DNA from: a virus
Lineage: Duplodnaviria > Heunggongvirae > Uroviricota > Caudoviricetes
Strand: one strand, 5' to 3'
Length of the DNA stretch: 57,943 nucleotides
Virus record (IMG/VR): IMGVR_UViG_643348545_000013
Span: 1 to 57,943 of that record
A program made the position numbers. Shown piece by piece: positions 9,001 through 15,000 of the stretch; the stretch's first letter is position 1; every line of letters starts with the position of its first letter.

Positions 9001-12000
9001 GCATCGTGGTGGCAGAAAAACCACCGGCTGCCAGGGCTGAACCCCATAACGCCATTGATGCCCCGGCCGTGAAGAAAGACCCCACAATGGCAGCTGCCCC
9101 CAGCACAATCTGTAGTCCGCCCTTTCCGGCTCCGGCCAGTCGCGGCACAATATGGATAACCGTTCCCTCACCCAGTGGTTCGTGAAGGCGGGCATACACC
9201 GCCTCCGGTGCCGTATCCTCACCGGCAATGCGTATCTGGTACCAGCCTTCGTTCATCTGACGGCGGAATCCCGGCACCTGCTGCGACAGGGCGCGGATGG
9301 CTTCCGCCGCCGTGTTCACATACAGGCTGAAGCGGCGGCCAAATCGTTGTAAATCCCCGTGAAGGCAGATGTGTGCCAGTGGCGGTGACGCCAGACAGAA
9401 TGCGTTCGTCGTTGCCATTTTTCGGAATACCTCTCCCGTTTACTCAGTTGTTCAGGCAGATGGTGAAGCAGTTCACCGTTGCCGCAGTAAATGGCGGCAT
9501 GATTAGCCACCGATGCGCCGAAGCAGCACAGCAGGATATCGCCCGGCAGTGCAGAGGACAGGGGCACCCGGTAAAAGCCCGTTGCCTCCATATTGTCCAG
9601 GTAAAGGTTCTGACCGTTGCACCACCAGTCATCCTCACGGTGAAAATCCGGCATATCAATGCCTGCCAGATGGTATGCATCCCGGAACAGCGTGTAACAG
9701 TCCGTCACCCCGTGCGCAAAGCGCCGTCCGGTCAGGTGCGGAACGCAGCGGAATTTGTGAATGTCACCCCGGCAGACCAGCCACCAGGGCAGGGCACTTT
9801 TTATCTGCAGTCGCCGGTCTGCCTCACTCAGCCAGGGCAGACCACCGGGATGACTGTGGACCAGCGCCACAATCTCACCCTGCATCTCCGCCCGCAGCCA
9901 GTCTTCCGGGGCAATACGAAAATACGCCTCCGGCGCTGCGGAGATATTCACACAGGGCAGGTACCGCTCGCCCTCCGTCGTGGTTATCACGAAGCCGCAC
10001 GACTCCGCAGGCGCACACCGCCGGGCATGCGCCAATATATTGCTATAGAGCATGAGAACTCCTGATAAAAAACCCAGCCGAAGCTGGGTTTGTTAAGTTG
10101 TCAATTGTCAGTAGCGATGCAGTGAAGGCGGCAACTCTTTGTTCTTAAGCCTTTCCCACGCCAGAAGGTTCGTCGGCCCGTCAGGCTCATAAATATCTAT
10201 ATCCCGCGTGTGATTAATTAAAACGCCCCTCGCCCTCCCGATGGTATACGAGAACTCATAGCCGTAGTCGTGGCATATGCCGGAATAGCCAGACTGAATC
10301 AGTTTTAATGCGGGATACAACTCACGGAACAATGCCTGTGAGCGGTTAGCATAATCCCATAGCCATACAAGGCTGTTTGCTTCTTTTGCGGAAAGCTCGT
10401 TGGTGCTCTTCTCTTGTTTGCCGATTAACTCTCCTTCAAGCGGAACGCGAGCAGCAAGTGACAGAGCTTCGGTAAACTGCTCCTCGCTGATTTCTTTGTA
10501 CGAACATCCAAAATGTGATTTCAGTGACGACCACATGGTGATCATCGCCTTCGCCTGTTTTTCCTTTGGCAGAGACTGACCGCGACTCATGACGAGTTGT
10601 TTAATGGCTTCCTGCTGTTCAGTAGTGATTTTCCCCGGCAACGCCTTTTTAGCTTTCAGTGTATTTCCGTAAGACCCCGTTTTACGAATGGATGGCAAAA
10701 CTTCAGCTGTCACCCATTTGCGGAATTTGTGCGGGACTGAACCTTTATTGACGGCATCGCGGCAACGCAGAACCAATGTATACATACCTGATTCGCTCAC
10801 AATGCTTAAATTCTGCTCACCACCAAGGGTGTAACTTAAAGTTACTCCCTTTTCATCGTCATCAAGTGCAGTAAGCGCCTTGCGTGAGTTAGTCAGATTT
10901 AAAGCATCACAAACATCTTTTGCTACAAACCACGGCTCACCGCACTTGTTGATGACGCGGATTTCACTGTCGCCGAATTTGAAGATGGTGAAATCGTTTT
11001 GTGCCTTTGCTATACTTTTCATGTCAATATTTCCTAATCCGATTTGTTGATACCGAAGCCCTGACTGTTACAGCAGTTGGGGCTTCAACTTTTTAGGCTG
11101 CGAATAAGACGCTGCACTATTTCTGAATTTAAAGACCTGCCCTCCTCCTTAGCCTTTTCCTTCAATTTTTCTTTAATCTCTGGCGGGATACGAATCCCTA
11201 ATGGAGCGATATCTCTAACTTTCATTTCTTTCCCAATTGCTACACCGTGATAACTAAATACTACACCGTGCTTATTTAAAGTCAAAGTTTTTTTGCCTAC
11301 ACTGTGTAGCAATGCTACAGCGTGCAGGAGGAAAAATGAAAGGTGCAAGAGATATCAGTCCCTTGGGAATTAGGATTCCAGACTATTTAAAGAAACGCAT
11401 TCAGCAGGAAGCGGATAAAAACGGCAGATCAATGAACTCAGAGATTGTGCTTATCCTTCAAAAACATGTTGATAATCTTGATGGCCCTCGCTCACTTGAA
11501 GGATTCGCTAACCAAGAAGCTGACAAATTCAAAGAGGCGCTGCTTGAGACGCTAAAGACCATGTATGGTAAGGATGAAAAATAATGCTGCACACAATTCA
11601 TTTCTTATGCCCCGTTAACACTGCCACTGTTGGGCAACTTCAGAACCACTGTCTCACCGCATTATCTCAAGGCGCAACTGAATTAAATATCCATATATCA
11701 AGTCAGGGAGGGGAAACTGCCGCTGGCTTTACTGCGTATAACTTTCTTAAGTCACTCCCTGTTACCGTTAGAACTCACAACATAAGCAATGTTGAATCCA
11801 TAGCTAATATCGTTTTCCTGGCTGGCTCAGAACGTTTCGCAAACCCATTATCAAGATTCCTGTTACATCCTCTATTATGGGTCTTTGCCACCCCAGCCGC
11901 CGACCATGCCAGATTGAGAGAGTACGGGAAATGCCTCGATAACGATCTTGATCGCTTCGTTGAGACGTTCAATATCGACATCGGAACCCATATTAGGTGG

Positions 12001-15000
12001 GCATCCCTGATAGCAGACTCGACCATTTTGGATGCTAACAAGGCTCTTGAGCATGGCATAATTAATTCCATAAAAACTGCAAGGCTGGTATCCAATCAGG
12101 CAAACTGGTGGGTTGTTTGATGGGTAAATCATGATTGCTCCTTATAAAAAAACCACCTGACGGTGGGCATAATCCATTACTGCGAAAGTTTATTAATGGA
12201 AAGGAAACCGCCAAAATTGCCGACATTCCTGCGCAGTTCACACCCGCGCATGCACTTGCTGCATCTGTCCTTACGGATATCGGTGGTGGGTTTATCGAAC
12301 TCATCCGCCACAGCCCCGCCCGTGTAACCACACTCATCAGAGCGGTAAGTCCACATACAGGTATTCGCCAGCATAATGCGACCGGGAAACAGCGCCCCGT
12401 CCGTCTCGGTCGGTGTGGCCAGCACAAACGAGGCCGTCATGGCTGTGAGCTGCGACATCTGCTCCACCACCCAGCGGTCCGTCAGCTCCTGCTCCGGGTC
12501 AGCCTCCGGATTGCCTGCCACAAAATTCACCGCATCCAGAAAACGCGCATACACCCGGCGACGAACCACCGTGGCCCCCACCAGGCTCTGCAAATCCTCC
12601 GCCATCCCGGTGACCAGCCCGAACAGATTCGACACCGTCAGTGACGGGCGGGCACTGCTCCCTTTCCCGTTCATCTCAAAGCCGCTGCCGTCAATCGGGT
12701 ACGCCTCATACTTCCGCCCCTGCCAGGTGACCGGCTCCCCTTTTTCATTCAGCTCATTACAGAAAAAATACCGCTCACCGCCCTGTACCGTCAGGTCGAT
12801 TTCCCAGAGTACCACCCGCGGTGACTGCTCTGATTTAACCGACTCATTCAGGCTTTCTTCGTTGATCTCCTGCATAAACATCCACCCATAAAAAAAGGGG
12901 CGCAATGCGCCCCTGATAAAATAGTTCAATTAAAAAATCAAAAACGATGAAGGTAATAAAATGAAAATTAAATCAGCTAATAGCTGATCGCAGTGACCAG
13001 TGGAAATATAACTTCCACTGATACAGGCCATCTGTGAGGGCAGATGGCCTGTATTTATTTACCAGTAATCATCAGAACTGATAAGTCATACCAACAGCAA
13101 CGATATCATCCGTTGCAATGCCCGCATCCCTGGTAAACTTATTCTCATCAACCAGATTGATTTTATAATCAACATAGGTGGACATATTTTTATTGAAGTA
13201 ATATTTCGCACCTACGTCAACATACTTAACCAAATCCTGGTCACCATAGTTTTTACCACCTACAATGACATCCTGAGCACGAGACTGCAGGAATGCCAGA
13301 GATGGACGCAGACCGAAATCAAACTGATACTGCAGTACCGCTTCAAAGTTTTGCGCTTTATCTGCAACTCCTTTATCACCAAAGGTCGTCAGATTCTGAG
13401 TTTCGGAATATGTTGTAGCCAGGTAAAGGTTGTCAGCATCGTATTTTAGTCCGACTCCCCACATCTCAGCGTGTTTACCTTTTGCAACACTACCGGAATC
13501 AACAACGATCTGCTTTTCAGTCACTTTACCGGTTAAAGGATCAGTTTGTTCAATCGTCAGAGTACCATTCAGACCTTTTTCCTGATTATTGGTTCGGTCC
13601 GCATTAATATATGCGGCAACGATACCAAAACCTTCATATTCATAACTGGCTGAGAAACCGTGACCATCACCATTAGCTTTCCGGAGATCACCCCGATCAT
13701 TTTTACCCTGGTACTGTGCCGCAAAATTCAGGCCATCGACAAGCCCAAAGAAATCTGTATTACGATAGGTTAATACCCCGGAAGTACGGGCTGTCATGAA
13801 GTTATCGGTCTGGGTCCAGCCATCACCGCCAAACTCTGGTAATACGTCAGTATAAGAACCAACATCGTACGCAATACCATAGTTACGACCATAATCAATG
13901 GTGCCAAACTCACCAAACTTCAGACCTGCAAATGCAAGACGGGTTTTATTACCCGCAGCACCCTCTGATTCAGCTTTATTACCAGAGAACTGATATTCCC
14001 ACTGACCAAAACCAGTCAACTGGTCATTAATCTGAGTTTCACCTTTAAAGCCCAGACGTGCGTATGTCTTATCTCCATCATCCCCCTTATCACTGGAGAA
14101 ATAATGGAGTGCAGTTGCACGCCCATACACATCAAGTTTATTGCCATCTTTATTGTATACTTCTGCAGCCTGCGCCCCCGCTGCAAAAATTACAGCTGCT
14201 GCCACAGCTGAAAGTGCCACTGTCATTTTTTTCATGATTTAATCCTTATTTAAACTGAACTATTCATGCATAGAGATGTCATGAACAAAACTCAAAATAT
14301 TGTAAATTAAATTACGGGTTCAATTTTTATTTTGTTTCAAAATGTAAAAAAACAACTTTGATAGCACTTTATGTCAAGACAAAACAAAAATAACAAGCAA
14401 GCAAATTAATAAACGATGCTTTTAGGTTTTTTCTCAAAAACTTATCTTATTACCTGTTCCATCATACAACTGAAATCGCTGTACCTGGCGTTATCCGTAA
14501 TACTCCACTCCCGGCACACCACCCTGACCGTCCGGTTATGTTTCGGCGGTCGCCACAAAAAGGCACGGTAACCACCATGCCACGATAAAAATTCATCCAG
14601 CCAGCGCCGGGTCGCCTCATCCGTCACCCGGAACACTGCCTGAAATGTCTTCAGTCTGGCATTAAGTCCCGTCGGTCGGCGCTGTTCATAACCGTCACCA
14701 AACCGGACCCTCACCACCGACGGTTTCTCACTCACCTGCATCCCTTCACGCGGGACCAGATGCAGCGTTTTTATCTCAGCCACTCAGCATTCCTCCGTCT
14801 CGTCGCATGGACAGCATCACCGCCTGCACCCGCTGGTCAATCAGCTGAACAAGGCTGCCTGCCGCCTCCGGCCCTATCTGACCGTTGGCCCCGTCATTCT
14901 GAATGGCGATGTGGTAGACCGGGGAATACACCAGACCCGCACTCCCGTTCATCCTGCCCACGGCACGTACGCCCAGCGAGCCATCCGCCGCCCGGGTCAG

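Follow-up and report, generated by a model that had tools for sequence, protein, structure and literature searches.

The cassette and its gene content

The stretch of DNA analysed here (hereafter the window, 57,943 nt) is IMG/VR record IMGVR_UViG_643348545_000013 (Caudoviricetes), a lambda-like E. coli prophage whose tail operon carries a 2.1-kb insert of four genes between tail genes K and L; the insert is almost certainly a P22-type immI region, and its last gene encodes a ClpP-like short peptidase (Table 1). The genes of an Arc-like ribbon-helix-helix (RHH) repressor and of the antirepressor Ant follow one another on the minus strand, and diverging from them on the plus strand are a Mnt-like RHH gene and the ClpP-like gene. 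The latter two are joined by a 1-nt overlap: the mnt stop codon TAA (11582-11584) and the ATG of the ClpP-like gene share one A (TAATG), and an AAGGA Shine-Dalgarno sequence lies 9 nt upstream of the ClpP-like start, within the end of mnt.

A preliminary description of this DNA, made from its letters, had already placed an insert of about 2.1 kb between L and K, with a minus-strand Arc-like RHH gene followed by a Bro-N antirepressor gene, and a divergent Mnt-like gene whose stop overlaps the start of a 178-aa ClpP-like gene. Every element was found where it had been placed, with Pfam matches to PF03869, Bro-N and P22_AR_C on the minus strand, and only the form of the overlap had to be corrected. 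The 110-bp divergent region with its repeated motif and palindrome was exact, and we add a fourth motif copy. The profile searches that the description had proposed recovered Arc, Bro-N and ClpP; it had overlooked the gene for the sar antisense RNA and two minus-strand terminators.

Table 1. Features of the cassette and of the surrounding tail operon in the window.
Feature	Position	Strand	Basis
Tail gene J	4968-8498	-	window gene map
Tail gene I	8738-9418	-	window gene map
Tail tip gene K, left flank	9316-10053	-	Prok-JAB 6e-16, NLPC_P60 4e-13; annotated K / C40 peptidase in PhiR12_1 and E. coli genomes
Intrinsic-terminator-like hairpin after ant	10064-10091	-	AAACCCAGC-TTCG-GCTGGGTTT then TTTAT; read by eye from the sequence
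Antirepressor Ant, 304 aa	10108-11022	-	Bro-N 2.5e-20 (N-terminal), P22_AR_C 4.5e-26 (C-terminal); PHROG 245 'anti-repressor Ant' 1.5e-104
Psar-like promoter, inside ant 5' end	10988-11016	+	promoter scan: GTGAAA-17-TGcTATACT, TG extended -10
sar antisense RNA	11024-11090	+	Rfam RF00262, 69.4 bits, E 1e-13, full-length model match
sar terminator hairpin, 14 bp	11055-11086	+	terminator scan
Arc-like RHH repressor, 46 aa	11085-11225	-	PF03869 5e-13
Divergent control region, 110 bp	11226-11335		between Arc-like and Mnt-like genes
Operator-like sites	11240-11249, 11261-11270, 11297-11309 (CTACAC-T-GTGTAG palindrome), 11315-11324		CTACASYGTG motif
Pant-like promoter TTGACT-16-TAGTAT	11285..11258	-	promoter scan
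Pmnt candidate TTTAAA-17-TACACT, weaker	11275-11303	+	picked by hand
Mnt-like RHH repressor, 82 aa	11336-11584	+	PF03869 6e-8
ClpP-like short peptidase, 178 aa	11584-12120	+	PF00574 1.6e-11, 44.9 bits
Terminator-like hairpin directly after L, right cassette edge	12153-12166	-	terminator scan: CCACC-GTCA-GGTGG + T7
Tail tip gene L, right flank	12177-12875	-	Phage_tail_L 3.4e-92; annotated L in PhiR12_1 and E. coli genomes
OmpC-like porin, 387 aa	13072-14235	-	PF00267 1.8e-139 (OmpC/Porin_1-type, full-length)
Tail gene M	14442-14783	-	window gene map
Tail gene H	14776-18018	-	window gene map

A P22-type immI with its own sar RNA

The sar match stands well above the gathering score of its Rfam model (43 bits), and the RNA is complementary to the start codon and ribosome-binding site of ant and to the 3' end of arc. 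Its predicted fold has a free energy of -28.3 kcal/mol (z -5.8), its terminator stem is nearly identical to that of the annotated P22 sar, and the Psar-like promoter is positioned to start transcription where the sar match begins, at about 11023-11024. The sar RNA therefore marks the cassette as a true P22-type immI. The protein comparisons agree with this: the Mnt-like protein is 33% identical to P22 Mnt (83 aa) over residues 4-79, including the C-terminal oligomerisation segment (E 1e-13), the Arc-like protein is 43% identical to P22 Arc (E 2e-10), and Ant is 63% identical to P22 Ant over 171 aa (residues 134-304). No similarity to the N-terminal half of P22 Ant was seen in a pairwise comparison with the N-terminal half of the window Ant, and Pfam Repressor_Mnt (PF11423), which is recorded for the Pectobacterium orthologue, has no match in the window Mnt-like protein. 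The likeness to P22 immI that the preliminary description proposed is thus borne out in gene order, in homologous Mnt, Arc and Ant C-terminus and in sar, and is stronger than it had suggested.

The two edges of the cassette are marked by terminator-like hairpins. The one after ant lies just upstream of the K ribosome-binding site and escaped the consensus scan because its longest stem takes in part of the T run. At the other edge, the junction with L, 63 nt from the stop codon of the ClpP-like gene, recurs in all nine K-L copies in IMG/VR.

The divergent region contains four copies of the motif CTACASYGTG, which occurs nowhere else in the whole window (expected 0.27; none of 100 shuffles reached four), and these operator-like sites overlap the -10 element of the Pant-like promoter. 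Across related immI alleles the motif in this region varies together with the Mnt N-terminus, and P22-type alleles carry the known P22 Omnt (GGNCCACCGYGGACC) and Oarc sequences. The N-terminal DNA-reading segments of the Mnt-like (RDISPLGIRIP) and Arc-like (RDIAPLGIRIP) proteins are almost the same, as are their first 14 residues (11336-11368 and 11193-11225). From these sequences, the two repressors probably share operators, which would fit the single repeated motif.

The ClpP-like protein is a short, gate-less ClpP

The preliminary description took the fourth gene to encode a ClpP-like serine peptidase and proposed a check of the Ser-His-Asp triad. The fold, Ser72 and His95 are present; the Asp is not, since Ser146 occupies the column of Asp171. 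An AlphaFold2 model of the protein (mean predicted local distance difference test score, pLDDT, 91.5) superimposes on 9UXT, the structure of Pseudomonas plecoglossicida ClpP1 (PpClpP1), with a template-modelling (TM) score of 0.92 and a root-mean-square deviation of 1.8 Å, and reaches a TM score of about 0.8 with E. coli, S. aureus and M. tuberculosis ClpP. Among solved structures it is by far the best phmmer match (E 2.3e-35 over residues 3-175, 38-40% identity; canonical ClpPs give about 1e-7), and the Pfam match in Table 1 compares with a PF00574 cutoff of 20.2 bits.

Ser72 and His95 align with Ser97 and His122 of E. coli ClpP and are invariant in all 45 distinct full-length viral copies that we compared; the Asp171 column holds Ser, Ala or Thr in these copies and never Asp. 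Since Ser and His are invariant, and since the ratio of nonsynonymous to synonymous substitution rates (dN/dS) of the window gene against the Pectobacterium-type copy is 0.08, indicating purifying selection, we regard the gene as functional and its product as probably catalytic. The protein starts about 24 residues past the N-terminus of mature E. coli ClpP and so has no N-terminal axial loops, and the phage clade shares a conserved C-terminal NWWV. The hydrophobic docking pocket of E. coli ClpP for the IGF/LGF loops of the ATPase is formed by Leu48, Phe49, Tyr60, Phe82 and Ile90; in the family these columns hold Thr/Lys, Ala, Asn/Arg/Lys, Ser and His, respectively, so that the ATPase-docking pocket appears to be largely polar, a reading that is inferential. 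With no gate, ATPase pocket or Asp, the database label 'ATP-dependent Clp protease proteolytic subunit' is untenable, and, as judged from its residues, the protein is not a canonical ClpXP/ClpAP subunit. The profile libraries concur: the NCBIfam ClpP equivalog TIGR00493 scores 18.5 bits against a cutoff of 308.6, and all PRK ClpP models stay far under their cutoffs.

The closest NCBIfam and PHROG labels are 'head maturation protease, ClpP-related' (NF045542, 3.7e-13; phrog_94, 1.6e-20), and GenBank annotates the phiv205-1 copy in this way, so the gene could be read as a displaced or decaying prohead protease without a role in the lysogen. We find this scarcely credible: the NF045542 score of 49.7 bits is far below the family cutoff of 120, the gene is encoded opposite to the structural operon and a long way from the head genes, related prophages have a head protease or capsid fusion of their own, the closest structure is a cellular ClpP paralogue, and neither the dN/dS value nor the invariant Ser and His speaks of decay.

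PpClpP1 was recently described by cryo-EM (2026) as a homotetradecamer with a 42.7 Å pore, whose peptidase efficiency is about 13-fold below that of the canonical paralogue, which requires its Ser and His and can dispense with the third residue (PMC12900304). It does not bind ClpX; combined with canonical ClpP it gives a heterotetradecamer of higher activity, whether or not ClpX is present, and cells lacking PpClpP1 grow more slowly (PMC12900304). We considered that PpClpP1 might itself be prophage-borne and rejected this, as the Pseudomonas orthologues lie in conserved non-phage neighbourhoods; these contain KGG-repeat and DUF6555 genes (loci L022-L025), which the structure paper does not mention. 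Because the Pseudomonas orthologues are chromosomal, the enterobacterial clade is a phage-borne branch of a wider short-ClpP family. In a profile search of 1.8 billion representative sequences, 64 clusters of this family score at E<=1e-30, and relaxing the threshold to E<=1e-10 brings the number to 2,168; almost all members are 180-195 aa long. Domain fusions were sought there as a hint to function and gave none, the relatives being almost all stand-alone proteins.

Distribution and mobility of the cassette

The same four genes, annotated as hypothetical, lie between K and L at 99.7% identity in Escherichia phages PhiR12_1, PhiR12_4 and PhiR12_5. The mnt–clpP-like pair is also found in genuine immI regions, between the tailspike and ejection-protein genes, both in the P22-like phages phiv205-1, E212 and EC.P3 and in P22-like prophages of E. 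coli PA45B, Res13 and NCTC11151 (the tailspike of the last is annotated as an endosialidase). The ClpP-like gene is 98-99% identical to that of the window in the E. coli P22-like immI regions and 79% identical in Pectobacterium parmentieri, and sar was found in the phiv205-1 and Pectobacterium immI. Among 5,426 complete E. coli genomes, 178 records matched; in an evenly spaced sample of 40 of these, 29 carry the ClpP-like gene, which corresponds to roughly 130 genomes or about 2-3%, and 17 of the 29 share the operator region of the window. The 35 IMG/VR loci with a ClpP-like gene of at least 95% identity divide into nine at K-L, 24 at the P22-type position between tailspike and gp16, and two of unassigned context. 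The cassette is a mobile P22-type immI that reached the K-L junction of a lambda-like tail operon by recombination.

These records also bear on the peptidase as a partner in immI. The preliminary description had held it to be part of no immI region known to its author, a view that is not supported: the same gene follows mnt in phiv205-1, E212, EC.P3 and many E. coli and Pectobacterium prophages. As for its being unprecedented, this is wrong for the sequence databases and right for the literature, in which we found no paper on the gene.

Several of the related loci show rearrangements around mnt. Two P22-like IMG/VR contigs (L037 and L041) carry two or three mnt-like genes of different alleles in tandem before the ClpP-like gene; one of these Mnt proteins is 99% identical to that of the window and lies at -272 or -556 nt, and a different allele abuts the ClpP-like gene. 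In E. coli NCTC11151 (L007, 5415-7512) an IS3-family element separates mnt from a 5'-truncated ClpP-like gene that is annotated as a pseudogene, and 5'-truncated copies also occur in IMG/VR loci L065 and L076. Between the ClpP-like and ejection-protein genes of E. coli P22-like prophages lie genes for Panacea-domain proteins or a YafO-family toxin (L005, 8099-8548; L006, 8054-8497; L007, 7561-8010), which suggests a hotspot for accessory or defence-type genes between gp16 and immI.

Cargo or switch component

On balance we favour, with modest confidence, the view that the ClpP-like gene is cargo of the immI region and not a component of its switch. At least five different Mnt/operator alleles are followed by a ClpP-like gene of 98-99% identity, in each case with the 1-nt overlap. 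Conversely, one of these immI alleles occurs in Salmonella phage S.Kent 1-2-1 (L109, 2182-2744) with no ClpP-like gene: there the mnt stop overlaps the start of a gene for a protein of 105 aa whose N-terminus resembles a signal peptide (MKRIAILLLLCLSSIANA…). In annotated P22 the mnt transcript includes orf59a and then ends at a terminator, sieA following with its own promoter, and the ClpP-like gene sits in the slot of orf59a. With the S.Kent 1-2-1 cargo and P22 orf59a in the same slot, the mnt-distal position is therefore a cargo slot. P22, the Shiga toxin (Stx) phage 1717 and S.Kent 1-2-1 all have an immI without the ClpP-like gene.

More distant homologues of the peptidase (51-73% identity) stand alone: in Klebsiella, Leclercia and E. 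coli they lie between the final lysis gene and terminase, in Chromobacterium and an Erwiniaceae bacterium among genes for tail and baseplate, and in Proteus beside N. No upstream RHH gene was found at E<=1 in any of 44 IMG/VR loci with such homologues, and in 32 of the 44 both nearest long open reading frames (ORFs) lie on the opposite strand. Swappable alleles, alternative cargo, stand-alone homologues and the missing RHH partner together make the signature of an autonomous moron expressed in the lysogen; the gene usually lies antisense to the genes that flank it, in places typical of such morons.

The competing view that the peptidase is an integral part of the switch, degrading or processing Ant, Arc or Mnt or clearing repressor fragments and so biasing lysogeny or induction, can point to the coupling with mnt, which, with its 1-nt overlap, is conserved in every intact copy of the E. 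coli/Pectobacterium clade (at least 79% identity). It can also draw on the ClpXP-dependent clearance of repressor fragments that is reported to be needed for prophage induction in another system (PMC10584840), and on the rise in ClpXP activity when PpClpP1 is mixed with canonical ClpP (PMC12900304). We nevertheless consider it quite unlikely, as the same gene accompanies interchangeable Mnt/Arc/operator alleles and several Ant types, its stand-alone relatives have neither RHH nor Ant nearby, and the three immI regions named above run without it. On the same grounds, the suggestion in the preliminary description that the peptidase processes a repressor or antirepressor (Mnt, Arc, Ant or the main repressor) is not supported. 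A co-evolved Mnt C-terminus (…YGKDEK) was entertained as a sign of partnership and rejected: nearly the same C-terminus precedes the different cargo of S.Kent 1-2-1, and this segment (…ETLKTMYGK-EK) also encodes the Shine-Dalgarno sequence of the downstream gene.

The arrangement, in which the stop of a small RHH gene overlaps the start of the next gene, also recalls a toxin-antitoxin or abortive-infection pair, in which a gate-less, toxic and unregulated protease, comparable to acyldepsipeptide (ADEP)-activated or N-terminally deleted ClpP, would be curbed by the RHH protein, at the level of transcription or directly, and unleashed on infection. A match to the FitA-like_RHH antitoxin family (29.3 bits, cutoff 27) fits such a pair, as do the missing N-terminal gate, the 42.7 Å open pore of the homologue, and the Panacea-domain protein and YafO toxin genes next door in P22-like prophages. 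Yet the RHH protein is a genuine Mnt with operators of its own, and in some copies its identity to P22 Mnt reaches 85%; the gene is tolerated without an RHH partner in the 44 homologous loci; PpClpP1 is only weakly active, and its loss makes growth slower instead of relieving toxicity (PMC12900304); and PADLOC gives no match. We judge this pairing very unlikely.

The E. coli homologue of 52% identity (L012, 2219-2767, plus strand; also L089-L095), in the lysis–terminase interval, has a gene for a 182-aa protein 79 nt upstream on the same strand. This protein belongs to a small unannotated family and matches Abi_2 only below threshold (E 0.04). It was considered as a general adaptor or effector of the peptidase, but among the loci compared the pair is confined to this one homologue type, and we regard it as no more than a lead.

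A model for the cassette in the lysogen

By analogy with P22, Mnt bound to the CTACAC-N-GTG operators in the lysogen would shut the arc-ant promoter and keep its own promoter on; should Pant fire, Arc would shut it again and sar RNA would pair with the ant ribosome-binding site, and any Ant that escaped this control would bind and inactivate the main repressor of the prophage. The ClpP-like gene, as the second gene of the mnt operon, would be translated by coupling to mnt through the TAATG junction and the Shine-Dalgarno sequence in mnt, and its product would therefore be made whenever the prophage is quiescent. If it behaves as 9UXT does, the protein would form open-pore heptameric rings that either work without ClpX or ClpA or pair with a ring of host ClpP into hybrid particles, and as cargo it would alter proteolysis in the lysogen to the benefit of the prophage or the host. 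What that benefit is we can only guess from position and orientation, which make a function in superinfection or phage interaction (exclusion) the most plausible, because the slot or its vicinity is occupied by sieA in P22 and, in the P22-like prophages of E. coli, by genes of the Panacea-domain and YafO types. In its most specific form, the model has a gate-less ClpP ring, expressed in the lysogen, that caps or mixes with host ClpP or acts as a lone open-pore peptidase and re-tunes proteolysis, either excluding superinfecting phages (for example by destroying their unfolded ejection or early proteins) or stabilising lysogeny; we offer this form tentatively and think it rather improbable as a whole.

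A number of observations weigh against the cargo model in one or another of its steps. The hexamers of the Pmnt candidate are weak (8/12) and were not reported by the promoter scan, and the activity of Pmnt in the lysogen is taken over from the P22 paradigm. The fixed joining of mnt to the ClpP-like gene could mean a functional tie rather than the sharing of a promoter. PpClpP1 is only 38-40% identical and chromosomal, so that it is uncertain whether the phage protein shares its properties, above all the mixing with host ClpP, and the exclusion function is, as said, a guess. Neither the four proteins of the window nor four homologues match any PADLOC-DB v2 model, which is weak evidence because that library dates from 2023, and a literature search returned no paper describing a role of the phage ClpP-like gene, the PpClpP1 structure paper being the only relevant one.

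The immI switch is a textbook system, and a complete copy with sar in a lambda-type tail operon mainly illustrates the exchange of modules between P22-like and lambda-like phages; the module and its K-L location are already present in public phage records, and its recognition corrects many database entries in which these genes are called 'hypothetical'. The ClpP-like cargo is widespread and unstudied, being found also in prophages of Klebsiella, Leclercia, Proteus, Pectobacterium, Chromobacterium and an Erwiniaceae bacterium. If the model is true in its most specific form, it would define an unrecognised class of phage 'protease-modifier' morons, in this case riding on the maintenance promoter of immI. 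Should the phage version mix with E. coli ClpP, prophages would directly edit the main regulated protease of their host, which would matter for competition among phages, for SOS and repressor turnover and for the physiology of stress.

A second moron in the tail operon

The porin gene between M and L (Table 1) is a second moron in the same operon. It is missing from PhiR12_1 and from the NCTC9112 prophage, where M directly adjoins L, and in 11 complete E. coli genomes it accompanies the immI/ClpP cassette. Its identity to known phage porin genes (P7 nmpC, JL22 ompD) is only about 73%, and the matching part covers about a third of the query.

Comparison with known systems

Set beside the systems it most resembles, the cassette and its ClpP-like protein can be placed as follows:

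(i) The cassette shares with P22 immI the gene order and the orientation relative to the late operon, a sar RNA whose terminator hairpin is the same, a further terminator following ant, and a second gene downstream of mnt. It differs in lying between lambda-type K and L, whereas P22 immI lies between gp16 and the tailspike, and in an Ant whose N-terminus is Bro-N and not P22_AR_N. Its putative operators are four copies of CTACAC-N-GTG and the N-termini of its Arc and Mnt are almost the same, whereas those of P22 differ and read two distinct operators, Omnt and Oarc. The mnt-distal gene is ClpP-like in place of orf59a, and sieA is absent from the window cassette.

(ii) The immI regions of E. 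coli and Pectobacterium P22-like phages (Lederbergvirus) have the same mnt–clpP-like operon, with the 1-nt overlap and sar. Their backbone is that of a P22-like podovirus and not lambda-like, and most carry other Mnt, Arc and operator alleles and a small extra ORF between arc and ant.

(iii) Stx-converting lambdoid phages such as Stx2 phage 1717, YYZ-2008 and 2851 have an ant module at the same K-L junction (ant itself is annotated in 1717), and the C-terminal half of their Ant is 89-91% identical at the DNA level. In contrast to the window, the module of phage 1717 has no ClpP-like gene and its mnt-like gene is split in two ORFs, and the Stx-phage K-L module gives no sar match at the Rfam gathering score. 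Between ant and L of phage 1717 (L026, 4538-5140) we noted an unannotated arc-like RHH ORF of 57 aa on the minus strand and, on the plus strand, the equally unannotated split mnt-like gene as overlapping ORFs (4795-4995 and 4922-5140); by its gene remnants, this module looks like a decayed immI.

(iv) Low-activity ClpP paralogues of P. aeruginosa, Listeria and M. tuberculosis act through hetero-tetradecamers with canonical ClpP. The phage protein shares the ClpP fold with P. aeruginosa ClpP2, Listeria ClpP1 and M. tuberculosis ClpP1P2 (TM about 0.8), but these are chromosomal and longer, keep their N-terminal regions and are only about 20-24% identical to it.

(v) PpClpP1 is the nearest relative of known structure and, like the phage protein, is a short ClpP without N-terminal axial loops that keeps Ser and His and has a third residue other than Asp. 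That residue is Pro in PpClpP1 and Ser, Ala or Thr in the phage clade, which alone has the conserved NWWV C-terminus; and whereas the Pseudomonas orthologues are encoded on the chromosome, next to genes for KGG stress proteins and DUF6555, the enterobacterial proteins travel with prophages.

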